A stretch of 46,800 nt of DNA, the filler included, from Catajapyx aquilonaris (lineage: Eukaryota), in the NCBI GenBank assembly GCA_000934665.2. It is 2 parts of 2 records of this genome, joined end to end, with 100 filler letters (N's around TTAATTAATTAA, not from the genome) between each part and the next. Parts side by side here need not be neighbours in the genome. Positions count along the whole stretch, not along the records: positions 1 to 23,356 come from JYFJ02005698.1; 1 more part is not named here. The stretch is one strand, 5' to 3'. Of the stretch, positions 744-40,984 are shown piece after piece. Each line of letters opens with the position of its first letter. Within the stretch, counting starts at the first letter, position 1. The translations under genes were made by a program, and so were the position numbers. The notes beneath the pieces were generated by a model. That model saw only the letters and a program-made list of their open reading frames with translations, had not been told where the DNA came from and searched no databases.

Positions 744-2270
744 TCAATAACTAGATAAGGTGCATCTGCCCGCCAGGGATGTGAATACCGTGTATCCGAT
801 CCTCATGTTGAAGAAGTATGTCTTCAGCTTCTCCTGCATCGAATTAACGAAACCGTTAGGTAAGTCCTTCAACCGCTCACCGGAAAAAACCGCGGACTCC
901 AGGTCTTCCCCAAAGTAGTCGAAGATCACTGATGTGACAGATGGGGTCAGGTGGTCGCTCCACAATTCTAATTCTTTCAGTTTGAGCATTGGGTTGAGCT
1001 GAAGCAGGTCGTGGACAGCGGAGTCATCCAGGCCCCAACCGCGCTGCAATATCTCCAGAACCTCCAGACCATAGGAGTGAGACAGCATGTAGGCCAGATG
1101 GTGTGGACTCCAAGTGTCCTCATCATCCATGATCCTAAGCCTCTCCAGATGCACGAAAGGGTTGCCTTTGTTTCTCGCGAGGCTGGTCAACTGACATTCA
1201 AACAGGTCAATACTGGTCAAATTGGGGAACAGGTTGTTGATCTGCGCCAGATCGATCTGTTCGCAGGAAAGCAGCTCCAACTTTTCCATGCCTTGCAATG
1301 GGCCGATGATTACTCCAAGGACCTTCTGCAGATCTGGAACATCAGTGAGATGGAGGCTCACAAGGCGAGAGAACACGGCGCTATCCACTACCGAGACTTG
1401 CTCCGGGGTGCATTCTCTCAAGGCCAGTTCCTTCAGGTGCACCATGCTGTTGATTGGCGACAGGTCGTCGCACCTGGTCAGCCTTACCCCCTGCAGTTTC
1501 GGGAAGTGGAGTGCCAGAGACTCCACGTCATTTCCAATCGCTGCATCATAATCATAGAGGACCTCCAGTCTCCGAAGGCTATACGGCCCATGGCAATCTT
1601 TGAGCAATGAACTCCCCATAATATCGCGCGGGATCGTCAAAGTGTCCAGCTGAGGGACGGTCAGCAGGATGGCCAGCACGTCTTCCACAGACTCACCGAT
1701 GTACTGGACACACACTCTCTTCAGGTTCTGGCAGCCCTCCAGTGTCACCTGCTGATTGGGGGACATCCCCCACTGGAACGACAGCACTTCCAAAGAAGGG
1801 CAGTCCTCCACCACCTTCTCAACGAGGTTCATGTCGTCCGTGACCTTCCCTTCCAGTAGGAGACACTTCAGCTTCTGGAGGCTGGGCAGGTGCTTGACCA
1901 CCGCCTTAGTCATGACGTGTCGTGCGCTGGGATGGGGGACGAATCCATGAGGCATCACCGTCAGGCAGATGAGTTTCTTCAGCCTGTCCAGGTTTCTGGC
2001 CACCTCCAGGTCCGTTTCGGTGAACCCGAGGGTGAGGTGGGTGCACGAGGGACACATGGCGTTGCGGATGTTGACTCCGGGCCACTCCTGACCATCCGAG
2101 ATGAGCCCCTTCATGTAGTCATTGGCCAGGGTGACGGGGATGGACCTCGAGAGAGCTTCGATGTTAATGTTGTGTCCATTCGGTTGTGTCTGGCACCATC
2201 TGATCACCAGCTGGACGAAGGACTTGAGGGCGAGTTGTTCCAGACCAGGAAATGTGCTTGGTCGTGGCAT
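744..2270 (-). CDS. Intronless leucine-rich-repeat (RNI/F-box-LRR-like) protein, 508 aa, with N-terminal BC-box-like motif
   Basis: Uninterrupted 1527-nt ORF. Many LxxLxL repeats (LQKLKCLLL, LEVLSF, LRRLEV, LKELAL, LVSLHL, LTSIDL, LERLRI, LKELEL). N-terminal FPGLEQLALKSF resembles Elongin-BC box motifs of PRAME/ZYG11-type LRR adaptors. Confidence 0.8.
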   Translation of the reverse strand: MPRPSTFPGLEQLALKSFVQLVIRWCQTQPNGHNINIEALSRSIPVTLANDYMKGLISDGQEWPGVNIRNAMCPSCTHLTLGFTETDLEVARNLDRLKKLICLTVMPHGFVPHPSARHVMTKAVVKHLPSLQKLKCLLLEGKVTDDMNLVEKVVEDCPSLEVLSFQWGMSPNQQVTLEGCQNLKRVCVQYIGESVEDVLAILLTVPQLDTLTIPRDIMGSSLLKDCHGPYSLRRLEVLYDYDAAIGNDVESLALHFPKLQGVRLTRCDDLSPINSMVHLKELALRECTPEQVSVVDSAVFSRLVSLHLTDVPDLQKVLGVIIGPLQGMEKLELLSCEQIDLAQINNLFPNLTSIDLFECQLTSLARNKGNPFVHLERLRIMDDEDTWSPHHLAYMLSHSYGLEVLEILQRGWGLDDSAVHDLLQLNPMLKLKELELWSDHLTPSVTSVIFDYFGEDLESAVFSGERLKDLPNGFVNSMQEKLKTYFFNMRIGYTVFTSLAGRCTLSSY

Positions 2271-2787
2271 GGCTCTATTTTAATATACGGAATGTATAGT
2301 GGAAGTTCTTGAAGTGCAAAGCTAAACTCCAAGCCTTCGCACATGAATGTATGGCCTGAGAAGTAGAATTTAAAGAACTCTCTTGACACAATGGCCACGA
2401 ATCACCTTTTTCCCAATATTCACTTTCGCATGAAATCGGTTTCAACAATGTCACTGATTGCACTTGGTGCAATGAGAGGGTAATTGTGGCCGATATACTG
2501 CGTATCAAGAGAATGTGTTGAGATCTAAATCAAAGTGGAGGACTATATACTTACAGTTTGATTTATACGAAATACCGACTCAGTTGCAGTACCAAGAACC
2601 AGTCCCTCATCATTCTTTTCTTCTGCAACAAATGGTTGTCTTTCGTCGTCTCTTGGCAACGCTTTGTAACCATTTACGTGCGTCGTGAGCAATGTTGTCT
2701 TGGAACCAATATAATTATGTAGGCCTACCATTTTTCATAGCCATTTGATTACAAGTCGGTTTAATTCGTTTTTATCTCACCATTCAT

Positions 2788-2863: not shown

Positions 2864-3264
2864 ATGCCAAGCCAAAAGGCAAGCATAATTTGTGTGCGAG
2901 ACATATAATGTCAGATTTTTCGCAATTTAATTTACAATATTATATCAGCGTTGCACGTGTCGTTCTCCATCAATACCGACATGATTGGTGGTCAGTATCA
3001 TAAATGTTGTGTATAGGCTACTCTGAAAAGGGACAACCCCAATTCGACCATAAAGAAGACCACAAGTGAGGGACACTTAACAATTTGTTTTTATTACAGT
3101 TTCCAATCCGCTGGTACATCAGTCAACACATTTGAAGGAATACAACTGTGGGCCGTACCTTGTGTGGTACCAGTGCCCTGACCAAAGCATTCTGTGCCCC
3201 GATAGTATGGTACCGTTGTTGATGGCTGGGTGAGGGGATGATTTTGGTGAGATCTTTAGTTGGC

Positions 3265-3663
3265 TTAGTAAATGTCCGGGAGGGTTCCGGTGAGCCTGCG
3301 TGCCAGTGCCTTGGTGTGGATGTGGTACTGGTAGGTGCTCTCCCTCATCCTGTTGAGCAGCAGGTAGTCCCTGGTGTGAGGGTAGACGTCGTGGTCCCTC
3401 TTTGCCCTGTCCAGGTAGGACTTGAGTGCCCTCTCGGCCCAGGTCTGGGGCTTGGGCAGCTCAGGGCGGTACCCGTTGGCCCTGCGGTCCATGTAGTCAA
3501 TCATGGGCCGGTAGTAGTAGGAGCCATAGTCATAGTTGTACTCGTACAGCGTGCTGCGGGGGCGGTTCCAGTAGATGTGGGGGCGGTACCTCTTCTCGGG
3601 GATGCTGGACGCCGTGTAGCTGGCGCCCTCAGACGCTGGGGCCGCTGGTGCCTCGTCCGCCAT
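3265..3663 (-). CDS. Flightin-like WYR-domain thick-filament protein (paralog A), about 132 aa
   Basis: ATG at 3663 (MADEAPAAPA..) follows a pyrimidine-rich splice acceptor (exon start 3693). HIYWNRPRSTLYEYNYDYGSYYYRPMIDYMDRRANGYRPELPKPQTWAERALKSY matches the flightin WYR pattern (W-x-R-P..Y-x-Y-x-Y..YY..IDY..P.PQTWAER.L). Minus-strand AATAAA at 3090-3095. Confidence 0.85.
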   Translation of the reverse strand: MADEAPAAPASEGASYTASSIPEKRYRPHIYWNRPRSTLYEYNYDYGSYYYRPMIDYMDRRANGYRPELPKPQTWAERALKSYLDRAKRDHDVYPHTRDYLLLNRMRESTYQYHIHTKALARRLTGTLPDIY

Positions 3664-3816
3664 CGGTATACTTTTGGTTGGTGGTTTAGATGCCTGAGGA
3701 GGAAGAGTGTGCATACAGAAATTGGTCTTAGTGGCAATGCTGAAACACGTGCGTAAAAGAAGCAGCTTAGCCAAGATATGCCCGGATTAACCCGGCACTT
3801 TCCAACTCTCGCCCGC

Positions 3817-3962
3817 AAGGGGGTAATCACTTCGGTACTCCGGTGTACACCTGGGAGTGGTACTCCCTGGTACTCCTCAGGCACCTCACTCTTTATTACT
3901 CATTGGTACTGCTTGAATTTGGTACTCCAGTGTACACTTTTCAGTCGAGTGATTACCCCCTT
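3817..3962. mobile_element. Small MITE-like element with 15-bp terminal inverted repeats
   Basis: AAGGGGGTAATCACT (3817-3831) and AGTGATTACCCCCTT (3948-3962); interior has several GGTACT(C) motifs. No clear TSD. Confidence 0.5.
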
Positions 3963-6850
3963 ACTCGCCCGTTTGTAGTTCTGGCACTTTGCCCTTCTCC
4001 TTCGAAGCAACTATTCCCCGTGAATATAGTTAGTGACAGCGACACTGTAACCAGCGTCGTCGGCGTCTCTTTGACCCTGTCCTACCGCACAGCAAAATAG
4101 TGCGTAGGCGATGTTATGCCAACCACCAAGTTGCCCCCAAGATCAAAAAGGAGGTGATCTGGCCACGAATCAAGAAGACCCCCACCTCTAAATCACCTGA
4201 ATCCCTTGGCAAGAAGCTGTGGGGGCAAGCAAAGCGATTTTGTACTTGTCAACATTGCTTGGCCCCAGTCTTGCCTTCTACGTGGGATGATTGAAATCTT
4301 CAGGCTATATGTGCTGAGACCGAAAAAGAGTTGTAACTGGATATCGGGAGTCGCCTGCATGGCTGCCAACGCCGTCTAATTGCTTCCGTAAGTGCAATGG
4401 AAGTACACGTGTTCAAGTGTTTGCCAGGATTTGTGCTATAGCCCGCATTTGGTTGCTGATCGCTGCCAAGAAAACAGTTTTCATGATGGGGACCTATCAT
4501 CGCAAGGTTGAGGTGCCAACAGTCCAAGCTCACTGATATAATGCGCCCAAGTACACGACAACCAATTAAATAAAATGCAATGACAGCTGAGAGCCATCCA
4601 ATATATTGGCAATCACACAGTTCGTCACAGTTTGTTACAGGAGTGGATGTAACAGTGAGGATGCAGTAATATTGAGTGGAATGCTACATAGTTGGCATCG
4701 AATGAAAGTATGCGGAAAACGCTGTTGTTGCTAAAATGTACGAGGGACAAATATTGAAGGTCAAATTCTAAACATTGTCATCGTCCTCAGGTGGCTTCTA
4801 TTGGAAACCAAATATCGTTATGACTTGAATGTTTTTCAAGAAAAAACCCTTGCAAATATAACAATAATTGATTCTCTGACACATTACTTTTATTAATTTT
4901 GAATATTGAAAGTCTGTCACGATCTATAAGTTATTCTGCTATTTGAATTGATTCGCGAAATATTTCAGCAAAATTTCTTTGACGTGTCCCCGATCTGCCA
5001 AATAGTCTGGCTCGGGTTGATAAACGAGCTAATAAACCTGCCCATTTTGGCACGTCTGTCAAGCGACTGCATGTCCTCTATTTGTCATAACTGGAAACCT
5101 CATCAAATAATATTATACACACATAAAATAATCAGAATTTTAACAATCAAGTCATTGCTATGCAGACATCGCGAAAATATCTGACATGTCTTCAGGATAA
5201 TATTTTTCAATCAGCATTATCAGCCAAGTATGTGCAGTATATCATGACACACGATTCATTTTAATGCTTTTGCACGTATTGCAAAACTGATTACTTTTCA
5301 CAATTTTGCGATTTTTTTTTCAAAATGTAGGATATTTTTTGGCAATTGAATTATTAAATCTCCTGAATGTCACGTCTCGTGTGCTGCATAGGCTATGACC
5401 CATCCTCTTTTTATGGCCATCAGTAAAATAGTTGGCAGCATTGTCTTTTTAAAAACGTCCACCCTGGAGCATGTAACATAACCCAAGTAACTCCGTCTAC
5501 ACTGTTTTCTTAGAGCCAGAATCTGGCACCGTTCCCACCAAAAAAAGAAGAAGAAATATAAAGTAGAGCACCGTATCCTCCTTGGACCATAAATCCTACA
5601 AGAGGACACTTCCTCATCTCATATCATAAAATTAGGCAAAGAGTTTAGACACTATGTACCACATGCTCTAAGTTAAGTCAGTTGCAGAGTACAAGAATTG
5701 GGCAACAATTGTCCGCAATTGCGAATTGTTGACCGCAGAAACCACTTCAATGAGAAGAAACGAGTATAATTTAAAGAGAGAAGCAACCATTTCAATGAGA
5801 AACAATCCGTATTGTCTTTCAAAGTGGTTGCTGGAATGAACAATCCCTCTTTCTGTAACTACTTTTGGGCTATAATGTACTATGAATGTATATAGTAAGT
5901 ACCTAGTGTAATGTGCCTCCTCGGAAGTGGTCCCAACGGCTCGGCGTCCAGTCGGAAACTGAAGCTTTAGCACAGGGTGGGAATGGATGTTAGGCTGTGA
6001 TTTTGAGAGGCTGCCATATACTTTCATCTCCTTTGTGTCTAGCCCGCTTCTTTCCTTTGCGCATGCGTCGCACTTTTTTCGCCACGAGAGATAAGACGAT
6101 TCTCGCCATTCAATTTAGGCACGCTCGGTAAAAGGTATTTAATGATGGGCCATTTGGCCGACATGCTCGAGATGCTGCCCAGTATATAATTAGCCCTGGT
6201 TTTTATTGCGCAGAGGGCAGATCTACGATTGCAACTAGTTATAAAATTCGACAATGCAGCTTGTAGTAACATCATTTTTATCCCAAGTGTGCTTTAAAGT
6301 ACGTATATAATTTCTTAGCTGCGTAATAAGAAGTGAAAGAAATTGAGGGGAATAACTATTATAATTATTTTTAATTCCAACAGGAGACACAGCGCAATAT
6401 CGTTATGCAATAATCGATTTGCACTCGCGATTTTAGAGGTTCCCGGATGGCTTGATATGACAGATATGCATCACTTTGACGAACAGGCCGCCGACTGACG
6501 AGTGAAAATGACATGTAGCAAGTAGCATATACATACCTGGAGCTAGTGAGGGTCCAAACGTATGAGTTGGCAGGTGGGCGATGCGCATCAAAGCGTCTCC
6601 TGACATGTGTCCAAAGCGAAATCAGGCGAGGAGACTCCTTGGTATATACGACCTGAAAGCATTTTCGCGTGCTAAACTGCAAGACATGAGAACTGGACAC
6701 GTCACGCGTGTCTCCCACGTACCAAAAGTGCAAGCCAAGTGACGCCTGATTGAGCTGAGACTAACTGCATAATGGCAAGGCTAGGTGACAAGAGGATTTA
6801 ACATGCTGAATTAAAAGCCAAAATTTGAGTGTGACAAACTAGTGCACCCA

Positions 6851-6983
6851 ATCCTGCAAGTATTTATAAAAATTAGGAGATAATTATTATCTCCTAATTT
6901 TTATAAATACTTGCAGGATACTTACACAAGTTTACAATGGTTCAGATAATTATTATCTGAACCATTGTAAACTTGTGTAAGTA
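6851..6983. repeat. Two abutting perfect palindromes with identical central AGATAATTATTATCT
   Basis: 6851-6919 has 34-bp arms around base 6885; 6919-6983 has 32-bp arms around base 6951. Confidence 0.95.
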
Positions 6984-9900
6984 GATATACCGGTATTATC
7001 TAAAATCGCTCAGCTCTAAAATATTTCTAGCAATTTTTGGGCAAAATTTCAATGGAAACGACATTCAATTTTGTCCAAAAATGGCTGGAAATATTTTAGT
7101 TTTTTTTAATGAAATATTTCTAGCCAATTTTAGAGAAAATTGATCTGTCGTTTCAATGGAAGCGACATTTTGTCCAAAAATGGCTGGAAATAATTATTTT
7201 AGAGCTGGAAGACAGCTTGGCTCCAAGGTTGATTTCACTTTGAGCAAGGTTATGGGGTCAAAGATGTTACACGTGCTGAGCGCATTACACCGATCGAGAA
7301 AAAAAATGAAGAAAGGGGGCCAAGGAAAATTTTGGCGTACATTTCATTTCGATTGGCAAACTTCTGATCTTGGCATTCGCTTCGAGGGACGCATATTTTT
7401 TTAAAAGAAGGTTCATGGAGAGGGCAAGTTCTGTTTCGGTCCATTTATAACCAAATGCGTGCATAACACCGATGACAAATAATGTGCGAATAGTCTTGCA
7501 TAATCTGACCACAGCCTTTCTTTTTTTTCGTTTCTACTTTTTAAACCTCGCGTTTACACTTGATGAATTTCTGGCACAGGTGAGAGCCTCTATTTGTAGA
7601 CATTGCCCGCCTTGTGAGTCGAGGTGCCACATTTCATGCTAATATATTTATTTCCTTTTTTACTGGCTTCTTCAGCAGCAGACACCTCCCTTTGCATTGT
7701 TACACCTCAGCACGCGTTGTTTTCTGGATGAAGTCGAGTCGGTAATAATAGCTCTGTAAATTCCATCGAGACAGTAAGGGTCAGGGACAATAGCCAGTCC
7801 CCAGTAGTCTCTTATACCTGCTAGCTCACAGAGGGGGGGCCTAAGAATAGGCCTTTCCCTGGAATTGGACCTCTTTTTTCTCTCTTCCAACTCTAGCCGC
7901 CTGTGTTTTCTATTCTGGGAATCAAGCGACGATTGACATCTGATTTGGGTCTAGAGTTACGGGGTCTCCCAAAGAGGACCGAAAATTGCGTAACTTCTAG
8001 TATTATGTATATATATTTTAGCGAGGCGGGCAAGGCAGCTGTGTGTGACAGGAGATGGGAATCAGTACGACTAATTTAGGGATGAATGATAGTCCTCTGC
8101 GACGTGGTGGCCTCCGGTTTGACGTGGGTATGAAGCCCAATTTCTGCTGCGGCTGGCAATGGGATACGTCAGCAATGACGCTGACATAAGACGACCACAG
8201 GTGGTTTTTCAAGTGGAGTCATATTAGAAAAGCCATCTTTTGCAATGTTATTGGACTCTGGCCACCCCTAATTTCGCCTTAAAATTCAGCATTTTTACTA
8301 ACCTGATGCACCAAACATATATCAAAACGTCAATTACATTTTTTGTGTGTCGGTTAATAGCATTTCGTTAGTGGTAAAGTTATCACAAACTTGTTACCTG
8401 TGTATTACAACAAAATCTTTAACTTATAAAACTGAAACTGATAATGTAGATGTTTCCTTCATCATATTCTCTCATTGTACTTCACGAAGTATTACCCCAT
8501 AGATATTTGTTGTAGTTAAACATCTATACGAGAAATTGGCATTCAGAAAAATCAGTCGAAACTTACCATTGCTTGAAAAATTCTGTCGCATTCACGGTCG
8601 CGATTTTAAAGTGGAAGAAATTGCAAAATTCAGAATTTAAAATGCGGATTTTCCCAAAGCCTGAATGAGCTTCACTTTTTCGTCTGGTTTTATTACAAGT
8701 ATGAACAACTACTGTAATATTTGGTAGACGAAGGAAAATACTATTCTGAATGGAGAGATCCTTTCAATACTGATCATTGCCTAACTTAAATCATATGTAG
8801 TACTGCCTGACTGACATTACATTCAAGTCATTCTGACCTATGATGGCACTAGATAAAGTAAAGCCAACCAGTTATGATAGGTCTAATAATGGCTCACACA
8901 GTCACACTGAAAGGATGATTAATATATTAGATCTTATTAGACGACGTTAGTCAAAAATTCGCATGGGTTCGCCAATTTCATGATGAACAATTTCTTGACT
9001 GGTACTTTGTATTTTCTTGCAGTAGCGTTGGCACAACTTACGAAAGGATGTAACTCACAATCACAGTATAACAGCCTCAGTTACTAATAAGTCACAAGAG
9101 TTAATTAATTATATGAAAGAGTGGTTACTGGGTATCTATATTGAGTCATGCCCTACTGCCACAGGATTTGGGACAGGGCACAAAATGTGTCTTGTTCCCA
9201 GTGGACAATGGCTCCTCTGAGAGCGGAGTTGGCGAGATGGCGACCCAGTGAGAGCTAATGGGTTTTTGCAAGCAGAGGATGCATGGGGGTGAGTTATGGG
9301 CGTGTTTGCCACTTGGACGAGTTATGAGGGGCGACTCAGAAGGTGCATCACACCCAGTCCGGCGCATAACGAGACAATCCGCCAAAACCACTCCCATCCT
9401 GTCGCCCAGGTCAGGTCCGTCATATTTCTTTCGCAAAATTGCGCCAACAATTATTGCAGCACACAAGTCTTCTCTTCCTGACCAAAAAACAGGGGTTAGC
9501 AAACTCATTAAGGTTGGCCTTAATTAAACAAAAAAAGTGCTGGATAATAATAATAAACTATTATATGACCGGACATGTTACGTGCGCCTTACAAATGCAC
9601 CTGTCGCGATTGAAATTCGGACGACTCTAACGCACGTCATGAGAGATACGTTAATTGCAAACTACCAAAATTACGTAAACCTTTTGCGTCAACCCTCCCC
9701 AATGAGAGACGCAAATATTTGTCGTTGATTAATACTGCTCAAACTGGAATTAACCTGCAGGCAAGATCAAGATGTAATTATTTATATATATTTGATGCAA
9801 AATGGGGTGTATTTTCGTTGCGAAAATTAGTGCAAATATTTCAAGAAAATATTTTGGAGAAAACGTTTATTAAAATCTCGAAACGACGCGACGAGACGTT

Positions 9901-12577
9901 TATATGTACACAGTCTGCTGTGACGAATAAGTATTGTGTGGGCAATAAAGGTTTGGAGATTCTCCAAAACGATACACGGAACCTTTAATATTCGCCGTTA
10001 CAGCACCGGAGTATGTGCAAACATTGTTAACCGTAAAACAATCACGTCGAGCTAAGCTGCATTCTTTTTTACGAATTGGCACCGCACCTTTCATGCCATT
10101 GTCAACCTTACCAAGCAGAATTTTTCTCGTGTCACCTTTTTTACGTAATGAAATCATATTACGCCATTCCTGTCATCAGAGGCAGTATGAGCCAAAAGTA
10201 GCTCATTTTCTGGTATGTGCCATGACAGATGATGTATATTGGCACAAACTTATATATTAACGTTGAATTTTCAGACCGAAATTGAGTGTTCATTTTGAAA
10301 AAACAGATGTCATATTCCATCACTTGTGATTTTTAACGTGTATGGTAATTAGTTGATTCAAGTAGACATGGAACTACTTATAGCGGTCTAAAATTACTTA
10401 CGATAACTACCTGGTTGATATGTTACACTTTAAAACGTGTGAGTATCCCACAGTGGAAAATCTATACATAAAGAAGCTTTTCCCGATGAATTTTGCGAAA
10501 ACCTTGTGAGCGACTGTAGGCATGTCTTGAGAGTAATATGAGCATACTATTCTCGAAGACAAAATGAATTCCTGCATGTCTTGCAATTGACGAGTGAGCC
10601 CGGTGGCATTCCAGAGGAGCAGAGGTTAATTCCACCATACCACTCGTCCGAACAGCTGATCTGCCAAAAACCCTGATTTAAGTTTCGGAATATTGCCAAT
10701 GAGTCTGGCTCGCTGGAGGTGGGCTTAAGAAAATGCTCGAGACTTCGGCTTCGAGTCTGTTTGGCAAGGGAAAGCGAAACCGCAAGAGAGGGACAGAGTT
10801 GACACAATGGGTCTGTCGGAGGCGCCAAAAAATCCGCGAAGGTGCCCAAGGTCGAGCGATCATATTCGCAATATTTCCGCAAATTCTTTTGCACACACTC
10901 GGACCATCTGGACATTCCACTCCTACCTTTTTTAAATTGCAAGGAGATGATTTTTTGGGCAGGCCATATGTGTAATGGACCTCCCCTGTTTTTGGACCGT
11001 TTCCAGAGTCCCAGACCATCTAGAGGAGATGGAAATAGACATGGCGCCCTGTTCCCTTCCCCAGAAGCTTTTCACTGATCTTAATTAGCCTATTCGTTAC
11101 TGCCAACTCCCACCGTGCTGCTTCTACTGCTAGGTAAAAAGTCTTACATAATTATGAGCTGGTGTGTCCAAAACCGTAGGCCACGTACACGGCGGAGGAG
11201 GAGGAGTGGCACTTAAAGAGACTCATTTCACGTATATGGCCGCTCTGTGGGTGTGCAGATTACTATTGGCTGCAAAATTCGGAGACTTGCAAAAGCTCGG
11301 GGAGAAAATTCAGCCATTTCAGGCGATGTTTTAAGGCGTTCCGCAATATTAACTGTGCATTTGTTGTTAGTTTTGTGGGTAAGAGTCACAATTCAATATT
11401 CAACACAGCATTTGCCAAACTATGGCTCAGTCACTTCTTCTCCAAAAGAAGGCTGGAATGCAAGGGCAAGGCTCATCCCATTGATTTTGACCAGGCTTTT
11501 CGAAGGCTGTAGAAGTGTAGACGTAGAGTGTAGACTATACTGTATCGAGGTGTATATTCTGTCCTTCACCTTTTTGTGCTCGGATGTTACACACACAGTA
11601 ATTTCAGGATACTTCTCTATTATATTGTATCAAGAGATGAAAAGTTTATATTATGCAAGCACTCACTAACAAAATACTGTAAATAACTGACGTATATCGT
11701 ATGTGATTTGGAGGAAAGGAAGAAACAATTGACAGTGCATGATATATGAATAATATTGCAGAACCTTTCAGAAATTATGGCGTCGATCTGGCGCACCATT
11801 CATTCTGTGATAATGATCATGACGATGATGACTTTATAATATTTTTGCGCGGATGCTATAAGGGAGCAACACCTGTCCGACAGTTACAAGAGTAGGCAAG
11901 AGAGGGCAGCGCAGAACAACAAGAGGTAACTACTCGCGGAAAAAGGACGAACTACGTACATATAGTTACAAGCACGGTTACAAGAAGAGTGATAACACTA
12001 TGCACTTGCATAATAATTATATGGAACATCCAGTGGTGGCTGATGTAATCTTGTTTCTCATTCTATTTTGTGGTCGTATGTATAATGTGCTATCTTCCAA
12101 AATAAGATAATATTGCCAGTTGTTACACACTTCATTTAGTAGATATTTGCCTACTTGACACACTTTTCGTATCAGTTGTGGAAATAAATTATCTGATAAT
12201 TAATGAATGTTGTACTCTATTCTATATAATACGTTTCTGTTAACTTATAAAAAGACCAGAGTGTGTTCCATTAAAGTGATGTTCATAGTGACGAGCCTTT
12301 GTCAGAGAACACTTCCGTATTAATTTTGTTATTCATGAGCATGTCAGAGGCATTTGCCTTGTGACATTAGGCAGTGCTGCACTCACCTTGAGTTGGTTCT
12401 GCTCTTGGGTTCCATCACCTCCCTTCCGGGTGGGCATCATTCCAAAGGCTTTTGCACCATTTCACATGCACTGCATCGTGCACTTGAACTTTTACTCGCT
12501 CTTATTTCGCGGTACACTTACTCTTTCTGGAGTTGTGATGCAGAGAAAATTCTGTACCCTACAAGGTATGTCATAAC

Positions 12578-13356
12578 TAGAGTCCGGATATTCAGGCAAA
12601 TGCCTATTTAGTTTCTTGACAGTTGGGATGGTTTTGTGAAGAGATCTATCCGTTTCATAAGTTCATGATGTGGAAAATGTAGGATTTATAGTGCCTAAAA
12701 TGGCCTATTTCGTCATTTTGGGAATTATTTTGCCTATTCTGGCTTTTTGAGACTTTTCATGCCCTATTTGGCTATATTTGGGATAGTTTATTTTGAACTT
12801 TTTGAAGCAATTTCGGGACTTTTATGGGCCTATTCCGGACCCATTCCTTCAGAGGCATGTTTGTTTTTTGCGGAGAATTTTTCGTGCTCCTGAAAGGATC
12901 AAAAATCGTTCAGAAGTAGGCCTAATACTACAAATCATGTTTCTGTGAAGCGTCTGCCAAATGTTTTTTTCTAAATTTTCCTCTAATTGTTCCAAACAGA
13001 GGAAAATTTAGACTAATATTTGGCAACATTTTGTGCAAGTGGAAACTGGCTACGAACGGTAGCGTCCAGAGCAAGTGATACTTGTTTTCACTTGTTTTTT
13101 TTGCCCAAGTTTCGCGGTTTCCTGTCAGTTTATCGTTGTTATTCGGTTTTTGCTATGGTTTGTCACCTTATACTTATACTTTAGGCCTATAAAACGATTC
13201 AAGATTTTTTATTTTATGTGACATTATCCTCCATACTCTCGAAAAAGCAACAATTTTGTGCCTATTTGCGGTTTTATCGTGCCTATTTAAGTGCCCATTT
13301 CAGGGTTTTTTCCTACCTATTTCGGGGGTTTTTTGTGCCTAAAAATCCGGACTCTA
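12578..13356. mobile_element. Non-autonomous hAT-superfamily DNA transposon (MITE), 779 bp
   Basis: 21-bp TIRs TAGAGTCCGGATATTCAGGCA / TGCCTAAAAATCCGGACTCTA (2 mismatches). Perfect 8-bp TSD GTCATAAC (12570-12577, 13357-13364). Repeated subterminal GCCTAT motifs. No transposase ORF. Confidence 0.9.
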
Positions 13357-14850
13357 GTCATAACGCAAGGGACAAGTGTTTGGATGATGATGATGATGAT
13401 GATTATGATGATTATTCTTATTATAGTGTCATATGATTGCGCTATGATAACACATTATTTTGCAGTGCAGTTTATAATGCAAACTTGATTTCAAGCCAGC
13501 ACGGTAGGCCTTGAGTTAAGCATAAATATTTACTTGCGCCGATAGTCGCTTGCATAATAATTATCTCAAAGGATTAAGACCCTCATGTACTCCATATTAT
13601 TTTATAGCATTAATGGGTACTCATATGCTCCGCAAAAATAGACTAATCCCAAAGCGCCTCAACATTTCGCATTTATCTCAGGCAGGGTTTTTCCAAATTT
13701 CGCAACGAGGCTATCGATATAGTTTCTGTTGTAGCCTACTGTCAGTGCTTTATTTTTTGTGTTCTGATATCACTGCTGTACTGTACATGCGTACTTTAAA
13801 ACTGTAAATACTGATCAAGGACTGATAATTTCCTGATAAAATCTAAAATAAGCTACAATCTGATACACTTACCTTTATGTGATCATAATATTATGTTCTG
13901 AAAAAGTTTTACTATACAATCAAATCCTGGGATGACTCTCCTATATAGCGCCAAGAACAACTAGTGCAAAATCGGCTATCAAATTTCATAATGCACATAT
14001 ATTCGCCAAATATCTTCGGAGAAAAAAAAGAGGTTGCAACGCCGTCGCATCACTTGCCAACTATTCTCTCCTCTGAATGCTGCTCCCTTAACCCATATCT
14101 CCTCCTCTGCAAAAATTATTTTGGGAACGCGCTAGAGCTGGAAGGTTAAGTTATTTGCAATCGAATCAGATGTCATACGTGCATTTAATCACCACCCATT
14201 TCCGGTCCCCTGCATGTAAATACGCGCCGCTGTTGCTGTCACTCCAGCTCTATAGGAAGAAAATCATGACATTTTCCTTCACAAAAATGGCAAGTTTTCT
14301 GTTCACTGCAATAATATTATTACTGGGCCATTCAATGTTTGGTTTCTGTAAATATATGTATGGAGTACTGCCCCGACAGGAAAATCAACGATAAAAATAA
14401 AAATCCAGTGAATAAACAAATAAATAAATGCAAGACGACGATATATTGCAGTAGTATTAAGCAATTATTTCATGACCCAGCTGATGCCTAACATAAGTAA
14501 TTACATTTCTTCAGAAGGAGACATTTTTTGGGAGGTCATTTGCCCTTGATGATTGTATGTTAATTAGTCCTTGTCGTCTTGAAATGAGCGTGTACTATTT
14601 TTCTGCTTCAACTGAAACAGCCGGTATGATTGACACTGTGACTGATAGTGATATCTAGTGATATTGAAAAGAAAAGCAGGCGGTGCAGACACATCTGCTC
14701 CAAATTTTACCCGGACATTTGGTAAATTTTATTTTCTTACGAATACACAATTTAATCCAAATTCAGACCGCGACTGGTAGACAATAATTTTAAAACCGGC
14801 AGTGCATATATTTTTTAAATAATATATTATTATATTATTTAAAATCCGAT

Positions 14851-16169
14851 TTAGAAAACGGTCTTCATTCTGGTGCTGGAGCTCTTCTCCGCCGTCTCAG
14901 TTGATTGGACCTCCTGGCGCATGCGCACCGTGGCGCTGACCGCGTCCATGTTGCGGCTTTTACGCGCCCAGCGTCTGTCCAATGTTGGAACCCCAGTCTC
15001 GTCCTCAAACTCCTTCTCGATGTTGTTGAGATGCTGCTTGGCCCTGGCTCTGGCCCCCAAAATCTCCTGCTCCCAGGCCAGCTGGTCAGCCGTGTCCATG
15101 GCCATGTCCTCGGACATTCCTCTCATATTCTTCTTGTAGAAGGGCTCCTCGTCTATGTACCCGGCTGTGCGCGGTCCGTTCATGAACCGATCCATGTCCG
15201 GGGTTCGAAGCCCGACAGTGTCCAGCATCTTGTCTGAGAAGTCAAGGCGAGGTGGGCGACGACGTCTTCCTGCAGGTTCCAAGAAGCCATCGTCCATGCT
15301 CATTGGCTCACCGGATGCTGACCCTGTTCAATTTGGGGGGGTTAGGACCAGGGTTAAACATAACACCAGCTTATAGAGGGCGTGTGTGTTTTTATTTGGG
15401 GATGAAGAAAAAATTGGGCCGATTTCTTGGGCTTATAAACACATTGTTTGGGTGTTAGATAACTAGCTAGGATTGTACTAGTTTGTTAGTGATCTAGACA
15501 AGGCTAAGGTCACTGGGTGACCTGCTACCATAAGCTGGCAAACGTTTCAGAACACTTGGTGTCAATNATTGGGTTTAGTTTCCGGTCCGTCACTTTTGAC
15601 GAGAAAATGGACCGGCAACTAAATGCTGATGTACACACTAAATGCGCCTTAGTCCAGTGTATGGTCAGCGACCATTGGTCCTTGGACATGGGCTAATACT
15701 AATCTAATACAAGGCACAAGATATTGAGAAACGCTTGGCTTTCAGCTTGAGGATCACAATCTCACACTCTTTCGCTCTCATTTTTTTTTTCTCTTTGGGG
15801 ATTTGTGTATTTTATTCAAACGATTCCATCGCGCATAAAACACGAAAGCAATATCCTGCCTGGGTCTCTGGACGTCGAGCGTCGCGGCGGGAAGACGTCG
15901 TCCAGATACATGGAAGCAGGTCGTTGGGGCCCTTCGTAGTCTCTCTCTGTCCAGTTCCTTCCTCCGACGCCGTTGATCGGGTCAACGGCTAACCTCTCGG
16001 CGAAGGTCTGGTGACCCGGAGGCCTCGCGTCCTTCTGGCCCACGTCCCTCTGGGCCAGGTACCGGGTCAGAGGTCGGTAGTAGTGCTCGCCAAAGTTGTA
16101 GTTGTATTCGTAGGTGCGGGTCGGCGGACGCCAGCGGGTACTGACGCGGGTTGGACGCCTCGAGGACAT
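14851..16169 (-). CDS. WYR-domain (flightin/miniparamyosin N-terminus-like) protein paralog B, about 260 aa, two coding exons
   Basis: Exons 16169-15860 and 15323-14851 (310+473 nt = 261 codons). RWRPPTRTYEYNYNFGEHYYRPLTRYLAQRDVGQKDARPPGHQTFAERL is a WYR-like motif. Exon 2 has a CTAAC branch-like site and AACAG acceptor. The best phase-matched donor is GC (CCAG|GCAGGA). C-terminal part is partly helical/charged. Confidence 0.75.
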
Positions 16170-20416: not shown

Positions 20417-21572
20417 TTACTTCATCATCTTGCGGATTTGAAGCAGTCTGTAGACTTCCAACTTCGTGATAACGTTCATTATAATCCGTACCAAAGGAAC
20501 TCGCATAATAACAGTGGCGGTGAACTTGATGAGAACAAAGTGCAGTTTGTCGTACCAGGCCATGGACCTATAAAAACTGGGCAGGTGTATGTCCGCTATC
20601 CAGAGTCCGTAGAGAAGCACCGATTCGCAATTGACTCCAAGCAACGACGGAAGGACCGAGTACTGTCGAGCCCCTTCCATCGTGATTCTGCTGGAAAATT
20701 CATCCTGAGCGCAAAATGTCTTGAGAGCAGGATGCAAAACCGACTCCAAAAACTCGGAATAAATGGTCCGAAAATGCTCCAGTCCTTGTCCGCAGGGATT
20801 AAACTTGTCCTGGATTCCGATATGATAACCTATGACCTGCCAGAGATGCAGGAAGCCTTCTAGGTCCTTGTCCGACGCACCGTGGACACCGAACTTCTTC
20901 TGGTTGGTCAGCAAAGGTCCGATCGTGCCCAGAACCACGGCTGCTGAATCCAGCTGGCTGATGAAGCATCTGTCCTCTGGGAACTCTATCTTGGGAGGGA
21001 TGCTGGGAAGACGCCCCATGTCCTTCTGGACCAAACTCCAGAAGGTACATTGGCCTTCAACTTTTGGCTCGTTCGAGGTGTTCACCCTGTGGGATAAATT
21101 GTGATTGGAATATACACAGACGATTCCAGTTTGTCGCATTGTACCTGGAAGTGTACACGGTGCACTTGTTCCTGTTGGACACGGCCCCGATGCTCTTGTG
21201 CATGTCCTGCACCATTTTCATGCTGAGGTACGACTTGTCCTCGGAGTTCCACATGTCGCCTTCGTACCATGACCTGATGAACTCCATGCTGTCCATACTT
21301 CGCTGGAAGGCCTTGTCCACAGTCTCCATTTTGCGGGTGTAGGTCATCAGCTGGAAGATTGGCGACCAGGTGAACGTGCAGAGAGCGCTGCAGAAGTGGC
21401 AGAACATCACCTGGAAGAAGTACTTTTGGACGAACTCCTGTCCCCTCCTGAGCTTGTCCTTGTCCAGCCAGACTGGAGGCTTGTCCAGTGAGTGTCCATC
21501 GTAGGCAGGTATGTTGGCTCCTGTTCGAAGTTGACGAAATGGCGATGAAACGTCCTCGCTCTTGGCTTTCAT
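20417..21572 (-). CDS. MpaB/rubber-oxygenase-like (DUF2236-type) protein, about 365 aa, two exons
   Basis: Exons 21572-21145 and 21086-20417, joined by a 58-nt GT-AG intron (phase 2). Motifs PVWLDKDKLRRGQEF, SWYEGD..V.DMH, ISQLD, EGFLHLWQVIGYHIGIQDKFN are typical of the arthropod-expanded members. An alternative in-frame ATG lies at 21680. Confidence 0.8.
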
Positions 21573-22875
21573 TCTCGATACTGTGTGTTGAGTCTGAGTA
21601 CTACAGCACTGTATGACAACAAGTGTTGTGGCTCGATGTTTACTTCCTCGTCCTTCAGTGTTATCGCTGATAAGCTCCATTGCGACGAAGCATCATGTAA
21701 ATGTACTGATATGGCACAATCCCTTTTTTTTGTTGGGCATTGCACGCAACCTCCCTGAATCAGATTACTACGTATTATGGTGAGTCATAAATTCATGCTG
21801 CATTTGGTATTGTGCGAAGAATACAGATTTTCCCACGAGTTCATTTCCTTTTGGTGTGTGACATATATCATAATTTCGGATAAAGGAAAGCCACTGACTT
21901 GAACAATGTTATACAATTAAGATTTTGTGCCACACCTGGCCGTAAACCACATTATTTTACACATGTTTTCATGCATTTCAGCTCAACACCCAGTGATTAT
22001 TTCCACCTAATTCTGGCAGCGTCAAATGGGCCAAGTTGCGACCGCCCAATTCCTTGCCCAATTTAGGTTAGAATATCTGTCCGGCTCAGTTGGCCTCGCA
22101 GATGAGCCCGGGCTGGTTGAAAGAAGAAAAAGTGCGTGCCAGACACTACCTGCAGTGATCGGAAGTTCAAGACGTCATGACCTGGGCATCTCAACATTAC
22201 GGTAATTATGATCTTTGCACTTCCTAATTATGATCAGGGTGTAACTTACACAAAAATGTGTGTGCGCAGGTGGAGCAAACATATCAGGACAACTTGTTGC
22301 AGGTTTATTAGAGGAACACTTGGTCTGTTTATACGCAAAGTTTGGACACAAAAGCACCTGTATGGACAGATTGGAGACAAATAACACCCGATCACTTTTG
22401 CGCGATATTTATTTCTATGACAAACAAGTAACAAAGCTACCCAAGAGAAAAAGACTGCACTGGGCAGTGAACGTGAACGCAACAAATAAAGAGGAGCAAT
22501 CTGAATAATCCTGCTACATTTTTAGCGAACCACAATATTGCAGTCCACTCAACTAGTAAATAGGTCAAATCAGTCAGGCATCATGACCGGGCTATGTACA
22601 AATGGGGGATTACAAAGGTTGAAGGTCACGAGGCCTGTCTGATTAATTGGGAGGGAAATTAAACGGGGGGGCTGTAACTTTTGGTATATGAATCGTTCGC
22701 AGGTACGTGGGACAAATTTGGCTACAGCTCGTTGACTGGACATATTTCGCAGTGTTGGAAGGTTTATTATGTATACAAATTTCTGGACCTGTTCACACTG
22801 CATTTTTTTAAAAGGGGAAGGAAGGATTGAATGGTTCGGGGGGGAAAAGGCGGACTACACAGTACAGAAATTACA

Positions 22876-25029: not shown

Positions 25030-28000
25030 TTGGAGGCTGGAGATGTCATATTGCAAATCAATGAGAAGGAAGTTTACAAGCTCACTACCAAGGAAGGTGA
25101 GAGAGACTTCAGTCCCTACGGATTCTATTCAGTTGAAAATAAGGTTTTCACTCTTGTCGTATGATATCCTCCGTCCTAATCAAATGCCATCTTCCAGTGT
25201 TGAAGTGTTTGAGGCTCTCAGGTGATGTTGTGACGTTAAAGTTAAAGCGAGGTGAGTGATGAGTGTTTGTGTTGGCGGGTGGCTTTTTAAAAAATATTAT
25301 TTGGAGCATGGCTGGGGGTTTGGTCCTTTTCCTGAATTAACGCTGGTTGGTTTTTGTGTGGTATAACTTTTTTTTTTTGTGCTGCTCTAAGGGAAGTGCT
25401 GCATGCCGCGAGAAGAAGCAAGAAGTTATTGAATGGTTGGCATGTCTGTGGATGGAAGTAACGGGTCGTACAGTGCATGACTTATGTCTTTGGGAGTTGA
25501 ATTCATATAATTTTTTCACGTGATTTTAGCTCAAGCCGTCACGATGCAGTAATTTGATTGAAAGCAATTTTGACACATAATATCACATGGTTTAAAATTT
25601 CAAATAAAACTACAGCATGGGAACGATATGGTAGCATCTCTTCTTAGCGTTATTACAGCATCATTACAGTTCAAATATGAATTTATGCTGTTGAACAGTG
25701 TGTACCTTTCCGCATTCACTGTAGACAAAAAACAAGGTGCAGTAATTTGATTGGAAAAAATATGAAACAATTTTTTAACATAATATCAGATGACTTAAAA
25801 TTTATTTTAAATAAAATTACAGCATGGGAATGATTTGGTTGCATCTCTGATAGGATTATGCATAAACAGCATTGTTACAGCCTTGAATAGTGTGTACTTA
25901 GCCTCATTAACCGTAAACAAAAAGTACGCGGAAAATAACAACAGTATTTGGATTGCGTATATATTTTTTTAAATATGGTAATTCAGTTGCCTTTTGTTGC
26001 TTTTTCGCATCATCCTCGGATAAATATCAATAGTAGCAGCTGTTAATTAAAATATTGGAAGCACTTTTAGTTATATTAGTGCCGTTTTGTTAAGGGCTCA
26101 CACTATTTATGTCCTTTCTTAATACATGTTGCTGCCATGTACTTTTAATTAACTCTGTTTGGCCTTTTAAGTGTTTCTGTATCAGTCTCATGTAATATGT
26201 AAAGTTTGTCGTCCTTTTCGCTGCATGATTCTGAGCAATGGCAGCATTGTTGGGCTGGCCTATCCGTTTTAAATGCAGAGGCTGGCTTTTTTTTTTTTTT
26301 TTGGCAGTACTGCAACTTGAACTGGGGCCAGCCTTATGAGTCGCTGTGCCGAGGTGCTCTCGTAATAGTTGGTGTGTCATTTTGCTGAGTGAGACTGATT
26401 AGTTAAGAGGTGCGCCTGCAGCAGACAATTAGTTTCAATTTTCTTGCCTTGACACAGTTTTCTCTTTGTTTTTTTTCCCCGTCAGACCCAGTGATTAAGG
26501 CGAAGGTGAAGAAGTACCTTTCGGCATCACCCAGCGTGGCCACGATACAACGGGAAGTGGACGGGGTGTCGGGTCCCCCTCAGAGTGGCCCTCGGAAAAA
26601 GAAGAGAGGTGGAGGAAGTGGTTGTGGTGGAGGAAGTGGTAGTAGTGGAGGGGACGCTGGCAGTGCCAACAAGAGTGGGGGCGGCGGGGGTGTGGTGCAG
26701 CGGCACACCAATGGGAACTGCAAAGGCAATGGCGCCAGTGGAGATACATCTGCGGCTGCCGAGGAAGCGCAGGAGAAGAAGCCAAAGGCAAGGAAACTAA
26801 TTTTCAACTTGAATTAAAGCCAACATTCGGACACATGAGTTATTCAATCTAAAACAGTTGCCATGGAGTACAGTCGAGATTCAATAAACCATGAGTGTAA
26901 TCAGGAACTTGTCGGTTACTGAAAAGGTTGGATTACTTGTGGAAATGGATGATCCGCAAATGATTTGAAAAATTAGAAGTCAGTCGAATGTACTCAGCAA
27001 TATTAATTATGAACTCGTCGGTAACAGAAAATATTGAATTACCTGTGGAAATGGTAACAAGATACTAATTACATTAAAGGTAATAATTCTTTGAAAACCC
27101 AGTCGAGTGAACAGAGCAATATTAATTAACTAGTAGCATTTTCACTGTAAGTGAGCGATGCAGCAGACGACGCAATTATGAACTCGATGTGACATTTCCA
27201 TGGTAACGTTTGAGTCGCACTGTAACGAGTCTGAAATATTTTGTCCTTATTTTAAAATTAGGAGATATGGACAAAGAGGTCGTGAGTTTAATATTGGTGT
27301 AAAATTAATTAAATGCAACAGATTAGCAAAGAAGTTCATCACAGATAGTGGACAATCAGTTATGAGTTTCATGTATATAATGCTAATATTTTGAACATTT
27401 TGTTGCCAAATCATCGAGGGGTTAGTCACTTCTGAAGTCCTTCGTACACCGAGACTGAAGTCCAGACAAAGTTTGTGAAGTACGACTGAAGCTAACTCCT
27501 CGACTTACATGCATTTTATGTACTCCAGTGCAATTATTGACCATCAATTCCTCTCCTGCAGGCGCGCTTCGAGGCCTACATGATGACTGGTGACCTGATC
27601 CTAAACCTGTCCAGGACGCCGCAAGGTGCTGATCTTCTCCCGGCACTGGCCCAGCGAAGGGTGGATAGTCTGCGTCAGTCCAGCTCAGTTCCCAGCAGTC
27701 CCAATGAGATGGACCTCGGCCTCAGAAAAAGTGGAACCTCATCGTCACACAAGCGACGAGCCGAACCAAGTCAGGAGGAGCAGGAGGTTCAGGCGTTGTG
27801 TTGCAGTCCGGCGCCCGAAGCCCGACAGATGTTCAGTTATGGCGGTGGGTTTGTGAGGACTTCCCGGTCAGAGGATCACTTGCAACTCAATAAAGACTCG
27901 GTGGCTGCAGCAGTTGACATTGACATTGATGAGGATGTGACGTCGTCGCTTAACACGCTGCTGGACCCGAGGCAGAGCAGTGAGGGTGAGGAAGAAGAGG

Positions 28001-31000: not shown

Positions 31001-31229
31001 GGAAACCTGCATAGGAGAGGTTGACGAACGGGCCGAACGAGACGGGGAGGTGATGGGTGTGCCGACGCTGGACACGCCTCCGCCGCAAAAGGCCTTGGTG
31101 CCAGCAGTGCTGCCAGCCTCGGAAGGAGCCGTGGTTCCCCCGCCGGTGCCAGAACGGCAGCAGCAACAGGACAGGAGGCACACAACGGATAGGTACAGTT
31201 ACAGGGCAGCCATCTATAGCAGTAGCTGA
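25030..31229 (+). CDS. Efa6: Efa6/PSD Arf6 guanine-nucleotide exchange factor (PDZ, MTED, Sec7, PH, coiled coil); first coding exon(s) not found
   Basis: Phase-consistent exons 25030-25096, 25198-25251 ([43 protein letters not shown]), 26486-26787, 27562-28443 ([22 protein letters not shown]), 28499-29038 and 29371-29564 (Sec7: [23 protein letters not shown]), 29639-29808 and 30009-30385 (PH), 30445-30588, 30924-31229. Confidence 0.93.
30652..30756. mobile_element. Intronic hairpin MITE-like element, related to a shorter copy at 29163-29213
   Basis: TTACATGTGAGCGATTTGATCA / TGATCAAGTCGCTCACATGTAA arms; both elements end in CGCT(C/T)ACATGTAAAC. Confidence 0.55.
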
Positions 31230-35700: not shown

Positions 35701-36476
35701 GCTCTTGGTAATAGTATTGGAAAACTGACAGGCAAATAAACAAACGGTCATACAGTAGCAGTAGCGAACGAACGAACTGTGCCTTTTATATTTGTTTTGT
35801 TTTTTTTGTTTTTTAAATAAGAGGCTGGACCTGAGGGCCGGACCGCGTCTCTTTTCATTTTTTTGATATATATTTTTTTGGAGGTTTCGAACAATTGCGC
35901 CTCATTTCCTCTCGTTGTTTCTTTAATTCTCCGCACCGTGTCGGGGATGGCGCCACGGTCGCCCAACAATGGACGAAGATTGATCAGCTTCTCTCTCTCC
36001 CGACGGCGGAATAATCTTCTTCTTCTTTGGGGTTCGCCCTGCCCGCTACCCCAGGCCCCCCCCCCGAAGAGGATGGGGGCGCACCCGTGAGGGGGCCAAG
36101 GTACGGGACACCCCACCCAGGGGCAGACACCCACCAGGGGCCAACACATTCCCCCTTTTTTTAATATAAGACAAAACGACGCCTCCCCGCCGCGAGGCAA
36201 ATCCAGGGCGAAAACGGGAGGGAAGCCATTTTGTGTGTTCCAAGTGTTCTTTTTTTGGGGGGCCCATTGAAAATAAATGGTACATTTTGTGGCTGACCCT
36301 TATGATTACAGTGGTGACCTTATGACCTTTGTTTGCAAGTTGCTGTACTTGAGTGACATTAGCACTTCTGTAGTACTGGGAGTGCCCAAATGAGCTGACC
36401 TTAATGTTTGTGAGCAGTGTCATTGACCTTACTGGGAGCTCTTTTTGACCTTGTTTGTGACTCCTGACCTTGCAGG

Positions 36477-40520: not shown

Positions 40521-40984
40521 TTAGTGATTGTTGGTAATTAATTATTATTATTTTTTAAAAGTTATGTTCAAACTGGCGCAATTTTTTTTGTAGTTTGTTA
40601 CATTCCCGTCCAGATGTCGCTGCTATCCAATCCATCGATTGTGTTATATATTTTTGAAAAAAAAAAACGGACACGTGCTTTTCCCCATCATTTGAACTTC
40701 CTACAACTGGTCTTACTTCAATTGCGTCAATTGCGGGGTAATTATCGTGTTTTTTTAAGTGAAATAATTACATTCGAGGTAAGTGAAGGTGTGAGATTGA
40801 TTTGGGAAGTCCACCAGAGGTCATGCTTGTCATTCTTTTGTGCTTAGGCCTTCAGCAGTCAACAAAGGTTAGGCCCAGGTCACAGAGGTCAAAAGGTAGG
40901 TCAATTACCCAATAACTAGACTCCCAATTAAATTGGCATTTGATCAAGTAATGAGCTTTTTTTTTTTGAACACTTAGGCTGAGC

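Follow-up and report, generated by a model that had tools for sequence, protein, structure and literature searches.

In a 46,800-nucleotide (nt) stretch of Catajapyx aquilonaris DNA (GCA_000934665.2; hereafter, the window), two genes lie side by side on the minus strand within the part taken from JYFJ02005698.1 (positions 1 to 23,356): gene A, a flightin, and gene B, an uncharacterized paralog from an old family that shares flightin's WYR domain. Gene A is of a known kind; what is new is the conserved order of a B-type gene followed by flightin, which rests on one outside locus. We think it probable that the two genes have stood side by side since a tandem duplication and that B, as we predict, is a second thick-filament accessory protein. 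A pair in the same order also occurs in another, only distantly related animal, which points to an origin of flightin by duplication inside an older gene family.

Six-frame translation placed the WYR motifs at 3546 (A) and 16112 (B), and 11.2 kb separate the coding regions (3663 to 14851), which confirms an earlier note on this DNA that had described two minus-strand genes about 11 kb apart sharing the motif. The pattern YEYNY[DN][YF]G..YYRP did not occur in 100 base-shuffled windows. A WYR profile scanned along the window gave exactly two matches (E = 2e-24 and 3e-21; next best, 1.9); because the profile contained both genes, this result speaks only to the lack of a third copy. A single N, at 15567, interrupts the sequence between the genes, and the link between A and B is therefore independent of any scaffold gap; neither of two DNA runs (X1 and X2) has one contig across the full interval. 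Nine of the longer open reading frames (ORFs; at least 100 amino acids [aa]) between A and B gave no Pfam match, and no intervening gene is claimed. The two proteins are alignable over WYR alone (21 of 45 residues identical; 23 of 65 over the aligned core), and their C-termini, which the note had called unrelated, do match different families when compared with tail profiles.

A degenerate DNA pattern for the start of WYR returned 98 stretches from a metagenome collection, representing 97 loci, 95 real WYR genes, and 12 loci of at least 3 kb. The matches at L011 and L082 were chance, and the other loci with two profile matches each held one gene split by an intron or insertion. One locus, L031 (12,165 bases, 36% GC), carries a B-family frame (7951 to 9135) upstream of a flightin (4038 to 4427), both on the minus strand; gene order and strand are the same as in the window, with the WYR motifs 4.6 kb apart. 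By our own definition, a B-family protein has an N-terminal WYR ending in T[FL]AER..DP and a second motif in its tail, and B has both. The L031 tails scored 82.8 bits (B family) and 49.1 bits (flightin). Its flightin is identical to A at 58 of 113 positions (51%) and its B-type protein to B at 74 of 193; one-to-one orthology of the latter two is likely. The L031 flightin is 65 to 67% identical to Orchesella and Folsomia flightins and groups with Orchesella (87/87). Judged from sequence, the locus belongs to a lineage distinct from that of the window, most likely a springtail.

The two genes diverged long ago. In a WYR tree of 78 cores chosen from 237 complete ones (66 columns; two intended rows lacked a full core), B fell with the B-type and "PGAL" groups, split from flightins plus miniparamyosin-like rows at 99/91; the B group was not one clade, PGAL being nested inside it, and 25 of 75 forks were open. 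If the family assignment holds, the A/B duplication would predate the divergence of the host lineage from water fleas and ostracods. It is hardly credible that A and B are neighbors by chance or through a recent, lineage-specific duplication, even with the arrangement at only one outside locus and with other neighbors that differ (a leucine-rich-repeat [LRR] gene downstream in the window versus protease-like exons, read by eye, in L031). Recent duplication was rejected, since A plus B as one clade failed the approximately unbiased (AU) test (P = 0.0007; 38 rows). As for chance, for the two genes to share order and strand in two animals with 51% identical flightins, within about 12 kb in one and 5 kb in the other, would by our estimate be very unlikely in genomes of hundreds of megabases.

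Gene structures were established from ORFs, homologs, and contigs of the DNA runs X1 and X2 and of X5 and X6, which were read as transcript assemblies solely from splice-type joints. X5 contigs skip 3694 to 5902 and 15324 to 15859, and both stretches are present in X1 and X2. X6 derives from a second organism. Its contigs cover the A and B exons and little else, with substitutions at 34 of 268 bases in A and 46 of 450 in B exon 2; such exon coverage with many substitutions implies that a relative also carries both genes. An upstream noncoding exon of A behind a GT-AG intron and a second coding exon of B behind a GC-AG intron add to what the earlier note had described. The features of gene A are as follows (UTR, untranslated region).

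3265 to 3663, minus strand: coding sequence, flightin of 132 aa in a single coding exon, ATG at 3663 (ORF, homologs, X5 and X6 contig coverage)
3430 to 3570, minus strand: WYR domain, W32 to R78, equivalent without gaps to Drosophila W85 to R131 (alignment to 8u8h_A)
3298 to 3381, minus strand: flightin C-terminal element, about residues 95 to 122 (alignment to Drosophila residue 175; tail profile)
3694 to 5902, minus strand: 5' UTR intron, GT-AG, 2,209 nt (X5 contig joint, not listed for X1 or X2)
5903 to 6004, minus strand: noncoding first exon without ATG, whose true start may be slightly further upstream (X5 contig)
3090 to 3095, minus strand: candidate poly(A) signal AATAAA, its use presumed from an X6 contig piece that ends at 3091

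Spliced gene B spans 16169 to 14851 and encodes 260 aa.

15860 to 16169, minus strand: first coding exon, residues 1 to 103, ATG at 16169 (ORF, contigs)
15993 to 16133, minus strand: WYR-type domain, W13 to R59 (Protein Data Bank [PDB] search, family profile, hhalign, residue table)
15324 to 15859, minus strand: intron, GC-AG, 536 nt, phase 1 (X5 joint 15322/15859; X6 loose end at 15326)
14851 to 15323, minus strand: second coding exon, residues 104 to 260, charged low-complexity tail (X5 contig, ORF)
15208 to 15255, minus strand: B-family second motif R-x-x-[FVI]-[GS]-D-[RKQ]-[LMIV]-[LM]-D-x-x-G, residues 127 to 142 (pattern match)
14436 to 14850, minus strand: 3' UTR, AATAAA at 14733 (X5 contig extends to 14436)

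One of five possible registers of the B intron gives splice-type ends, GC..AG, and the sequence at the X6 loose end (15326) is similar to the end of B exon 1. A splice-acceptor-like tract precedes the first coding exon, and there is probably a further 5' UTR exon upstream. An X5 contig (15422 to 15888, minus strand) extends from B exon 1 into the intron, with AATAAA at 15396, and an X6 contig matches 15414 to 15588 within it. These contigs may represent unspliced RNA, or else an intron-retaining or intronic-poly(A) form whose 117-aa product (stop at 15816) would consist of WYR only.

Gene A is, on its sequence, an ordinary flightin. The accessible portions of PMC4929530 and PMC10573858 describe a three-part flightin layout with a variable N-terminus and a conserved C-terminal element; A shows this layout, with a W- and R-bounded, tyrosine-rich WYR domain within the expected length of about 47 to 52 residues. 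Its PDB matches were flightins only (Drosophila 8u8h_A, E = 6e-16, A residues 28 to 122 on 81 to 175; Bombus 8ew5_A, E = 6e-11), Foldseek with the A model returned flightin first (E = 0.007), and a homolog search matched 14 of 53 candidates at 38 to 57% identity, the named ones being Orchesella, Folsomia, and Ranatra flightins. With WYR removed, the 46-residue tail was compared with a profile of 23 flightin tails and scored 25.4 bits, a value that none of 200 shuffles reached; it had no score against the other three tail profiles, the miniparamyosin-like one included ("miniparamyosin-like," "crustacean-type," and "insect-type" on unnamed rows are labels assigned in this analysis). Both myosin-contact positions are kept (R34 for R87 and K71 for R124), as is W75 for W128. 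A fell among flightins in the 78-core tree (enclosing fork, 84/81, unstarred), and in a 36-row flightin tree it joined 12 springtail-type flightins as their sister (95/78, unstarred), falling outside them (90/94). Of the hosts that the earlier note had envisaged, a wingless one fits the tree, which weakly favors a hexapod other than a springtail, and a non-pancrustacean one is unlikely because the nearest relatives of A are springtail flightins. Neither A nor B exon 1 was assigned a family by Pfam, and the match for B exon 2 was below threshold; Flightin_C, the family named by Atlas, was not reported, and none of 13 relatives scanned rose above the curated cut-off.

The earlier note had proposed that A stands between flightin and the miniparamyosin head as an intermediate and that the cluster may preserve a stage in the origin of flightin. 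We now regard this as very improbable. The WYR of A is identical at 26 of 55 positions to that of the miniparamyosin-like P0147, and Folsomia flightin is auto-named "paramyosin, short form" by NCBI, both of which favor the proposal. However, the C-terminus of A is that of flightin, and its tail is not miniparamyosin-like; both trees place A among flightins, and the motif that it carries is standard in springtail flightins. Among 342 collected sequences (a redundant set, A included), YEYNYDYG..YYRPM[IL]DY occurs in 22, including Orchesella and Folsomia flightins, where the stretch is identical, and YEYN[YF] is combined with Q[TSN][WF]AER in six sequences besides A. The YEYNYDYG stretch is the ordinary flightin form outside the pterygotes, an ancestral sequence that all non-pterygote flightins have retained and of which insect flightin has a derived form. 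Seven rows (P0113, P0130, P0135, P0147, P0117, P0134, and P0159) we take to be miniparamyosin heads (paramyosin short form); against six tails so labeled, the B tail scored 1.3 bits, with 7 of 200 shuffles as high. The miniparamyosin head exon is spliced to the last paramyosin coiled-coil exons. A and B each end in their own stop codon, with 3' UTRs covered by X5 contigs and neither joined to paramyosin coiled-coil exons, and no paramyosin-like ORF was noticed in the window by ORF reading or Pfam scan. What stands of the note's "flightin/miniparamyosin-like" label is thus a real WYR-type domain in both genes, miniparamyosin identity being matched by neither tail, and what stands of its cluster is an old tandem pair, its order recurring in L031, in which A is no intermediate.

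Gene B is no flightin, but it may still act like one. Its tail had no score against flightin tails, and it lacks flightin's external N-terminal domain, WYR beginning at residue 13. A profile built from three sequences, the two window cores and a crustacean-type flightin, matched 357 of 1.84 billion representatives at E ≤ 0.001, the best 150 of which sort by eye into flightins and several groups with an N-terminal WYR. Within a local set of 168 proteins, spliced B aligned over most of its length with P0041, P0057, and P0114 (E = 5e-26 to 2e-23), with 34.5% identity to P0041 over residues 1 to 214. The B tail by itself scored 33.2 bits against 11 B-family tails, in a profile from which B and L031 were left out, and none of 200 shuffles scored as high; the 33.2-bit match runs through the second motif, which was present in 25 of the 342 collected sequences, all of them B-type by eye. 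By these matches, B belongs to an unnamed family with an N-terminal WYR, a long low-complexity tail, and the second motif. A family search gave 72 matches among 8,000 scored candidates, including Daphnia magna and Daphnia pulicaria proteins recorded as "hypothetical" or "uncharacterized," and a cluster lookup of 20 B-group representatives gave one organism name, Cyprideis torosa.

The B family matched flightin in profile comparisons: a profile of 16 B-type and related proteins that included no flightin matched Drosophila flightin (E = 7e-10), and B-type and flightin family profiles were aligned by hhalign with a probability of 99.2 over 62 columns. As a single sequence, B matched flightin in the PDB at E = 0.005. 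Earlier searches with B exon 1 were blank, both among longer proteins (0 of 71 candidates matched) and in a metagenome scan (590 pattern matches, 0 confirmed); these blanks reflect limits of sensitivity, since profile searches later found the B family. Matches of B to MCL-1 (E = 0.25 and above) and of the B-family profile to nsp8 (E = 0.15 and above) were treated as chance. In Atlas, B residues 1 to 104 scored 0.85 to 0.86 with myofilin clusters and 0.84 with a flightin cluster, all under the 0.9 lead level, and a myofilin link is not claimed; P0114 scored 0.88 to 0.90 with unnamed arthropod clusters, at low recognition.

It is quite possible that B is the hexapod ortholog of the decapod "paraflightin," in which case both families would already be described and the novelty would be limited to range and linkage; this would be compatible with the mechanism proposed below. 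Soto-Adames et al. reportedly described, in 2014, paraflightin as a WYR-bearing flightin paralog in decapods that is older than the amphipod/isopod/decapod split, along with a third motif in chelicerates. To our knowledge, paraflightin is reported from decapods, and we know of no linkage to flightin; the word was not found in the open literature searched. The B family is likewise old and crustacean-wide. Yet paraflightin could equally well be a divergent flightin-like group (P0044, P0048, and P0058) or one of at least three further WYR groups, besides the B family, that are not flightins, and the named B members carry the "uncharacterized" or "hypothetical" annotations given above. We found no description of the A-B pair or of the B family in the literature accessible to search, subscription papers being outside its reach. 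In their accessible portions, PMC8301149 and PMC8301185 treat WYR as flightin's defining domain, exclusive to Pancrustacea, and the corresponding portions of PMC8301185, PMC9820631, PMC8301149, PMC4929530, PMC10573858, and PMC2120917 mention no paralog of flightin.

In Drosophila, the WYR helix-loop-helix lies inside the myosin tail annulus, where R87 pairs with myosin E1554 and R124 forms a second salt bridge (PMC10573858, accessible portion), and isolated WYR binds light meromyosin (PMC8301185, accessible portion). B retains the W, the R87-equivalent (R), the P, the tyrosines, G117, and the ER, and the R87-equivalent is R or K in all 75 grouped rows. A model of the first 75 residues of B has helices at 32 to 43 and 56 to 62 (predicted local distance difference test score, 71), with 10 flightins among the 64 rows of the input alignment; Foldseek returned no match with this model. 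By analogy with Drosophila and Bombus, A would act as other flightins do, its WYR helix-loop-helix binding the myosin rod in the thick-filament backbone and its C-terminal element contacting a further myosin layer. B would most likely anchor on the myosin rod by the same WYR fold, through the R87-equivalent first contact site, and would present a different part there: a 190-residue charged tail with its own motif instead of the flightin N-terminal domain and C-terminal element. It would then be expressed in muscle as a second thick-filament accessory protein, probably in other muscle types or filament zones. The tandem duplication would go back at least to the last ancestor that the host shares with springtails, with the gene families older still, and the linkage may date back to the duplication itself.

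Several results weigh against this account of the pair. The linkage recurs in one locus of 97 (the single informative one), the others being too short or belonging to other subfamilies; at other flightin or B-type loci, the flank on the relevant side is too short (1.3 kb at L015 and 1.7 kb at L022). B and the L031 gene were not sisters in the WYR tree, and holding them together was neither shown nor rejected (P = 0.12); the end branch of B is long (0.93 in the 78-core tree). On the 66 WYR columns alone, the AU test did not reject a grouping of A with the miniparamyosin-like rows (P = 0.36), a point in favor of an intermediate; the WYR core therefore cannot decide the identity of A, and the tail decides it. 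B has G at the R124-equivalent, a position with a basic residue in 32 of 34 flightins but in 6 of 19 B-type proteins and none of 15 PGAL proteins; B is also one residue shorter between W and the conserved R. Compared with 48,161 chains, the B model had two flightins at the top, but weakly (Z = 3.8, root mean square deviation of 3.5 over 51 aligned residues, and Z = 3.0).

With F at the W128-equivalent in addition, B has lost both the R124- and W128-equivalents; together with the long branch, the mostly low-complexity tail, and the lack of a Pfam match, this could point to a WYR-derived protein that does not bind the myosin rod, with another partner or a nonmuscle role and with the linkage as a passive leftover. 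We consider this unlikely. B and the family as a whole retain the W, R87, P, tyrosine set, G117, and ER; the R124 and W128 substitutions are family-wide rather than decay in B; and a helix-loop-helix is predicted at the same place. B as a second myosin-anchored protein beside flightin remains the account that we favor.

A conserved tandem of flightin and a paralog, set within a multibranch WYR family, would recast flightin as a duplicate with a newly gained C-terminus. A survey by Soto-Adames et al. (2014) is said to have proposed a de novo origin of flightin. More tentatively, flightin might be one branch of an older WYR superfamily of predicted myosin-rod-anchoring proteins rather than a de novo gene, with at least five subfamilies (flightin, the B family, PGAL, miniparamyosin-like heads, and QEFG) and with the B-then-flightin tandem as the footprint of the founding duplication. 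The B family would then represent a thick-filament protein that has gone unrecognized in crustaceans and wingless hexapods. It might have been lost from winged insects and might connect with a WYR-like motif reported from chelicerates, and the ancestral state of flightin would become directly testable. B would also provide muscle biology with a second candidate thick-filament protein for crustacean and wingless-hexapod filaments. The significance is that of an evolutionary and cell-biological lead within a known kind of protein, with no new mechanism.

Three further sets of WYR sequences were encountered. The PGAL subfamily is large (100/99; L004, L007, L018, L038, and L076; P0108, P0146, P0160, and P0213). 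Its members have a conserved tail of their own and fall into several paralog types; most of the records are unnamed. In a WYR-like QEFG group (L010, L017, L030, L053, and L066; P0166), with YNQ[ED]FGG, a [YH][LM]P ending replaces TWAER; no name for it was found. Variants at L008, L027, L028, L039, L042, L043, L055, and L087 and in P0170, P0171, and P0148 include several with a Ser/Arg-rich loop insertion; their tails matched none of the four tail profiles, and the variants are candidates for further paralogs or non-pancrustacean members.

Around the pair, DNA depth indicated high-copy repeats at 3816 to 3962, inside the A intron, and at about 12550 to 13430, and two adjacent palindromes were read from the sequence near 6860 to 6995. 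Directly downstream of flightin lies an intronless 511-residue LRR frame (744 to 2279, minus strand), with weak Pfam LRR matches. Two overlapping frames at 20417 to 21692 (minus strand), with a frameshift or intron near 21100 to 21200, had no Pfam match at E = 0.001; by eye they resemble what we take to be an endoplasmic reticulum-bound oxygenase (MpaB/DUF2236-type). Elsewhere in the window are a gene with Sec7 plus PH domains (EFA6/PSD-like; 26407 to 31229, plus strand) and a BTB zinc-finger gene (36468 to 38695, plus strand). A frame at 42140 to 43111 (plus strand) with a Ribosomal_L22e match (E = 4e-13) follows importin-alpha-like or ARM-like exons (40970 to 42423, by eye) and is possibly a fusion or an inserted retrocopy.

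Among known systems, the miniparamyosin-like head begins with a WYR-like module in which the W, R/K, P, Y, and ER anchors of A and B recur; its rows form a separate clade (100/99) with an H[LI]P[WY] ending, and their tails are unmatched by those of A and B. Paraflightin of decapods is reportedly, like B, a non-flightin pancrustacean WYR protein. The proteins D. magna OUZ56_004092, D. pulicaria LOC124337500, and C. torosa CAG0879324.1, which have no function or family name in the records examined, share with B the N-terminal WYR, the PP..T[FL]AER ending (mostly followed by ..DP), and the long charged tail, and those of Daphnia carry the second motif; within the family B is divergent, with 75 of 228 positions identical between it and the D. 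magna protein. A is like the flightins of Drosophila (8u8h_A), Bombus (8ew5_A), Orchesella cincta (ODN04188.1), and Folsomia candida (OXA62897.1) in its variable Ala/Pro/acidic N-terminus, ungapped WYR, and C-terminal element. With about 50% identity to springtail flightins, it mixes a non-pterygote WYR start (YEYNYDYG) with an insect- and crustacean-like QTWAERA end. Flightin and B have WYR in common, whereas B carries it at the very N-terminus and, in place of a C-terminal element, has a 190-residue tail with a motif of its own.

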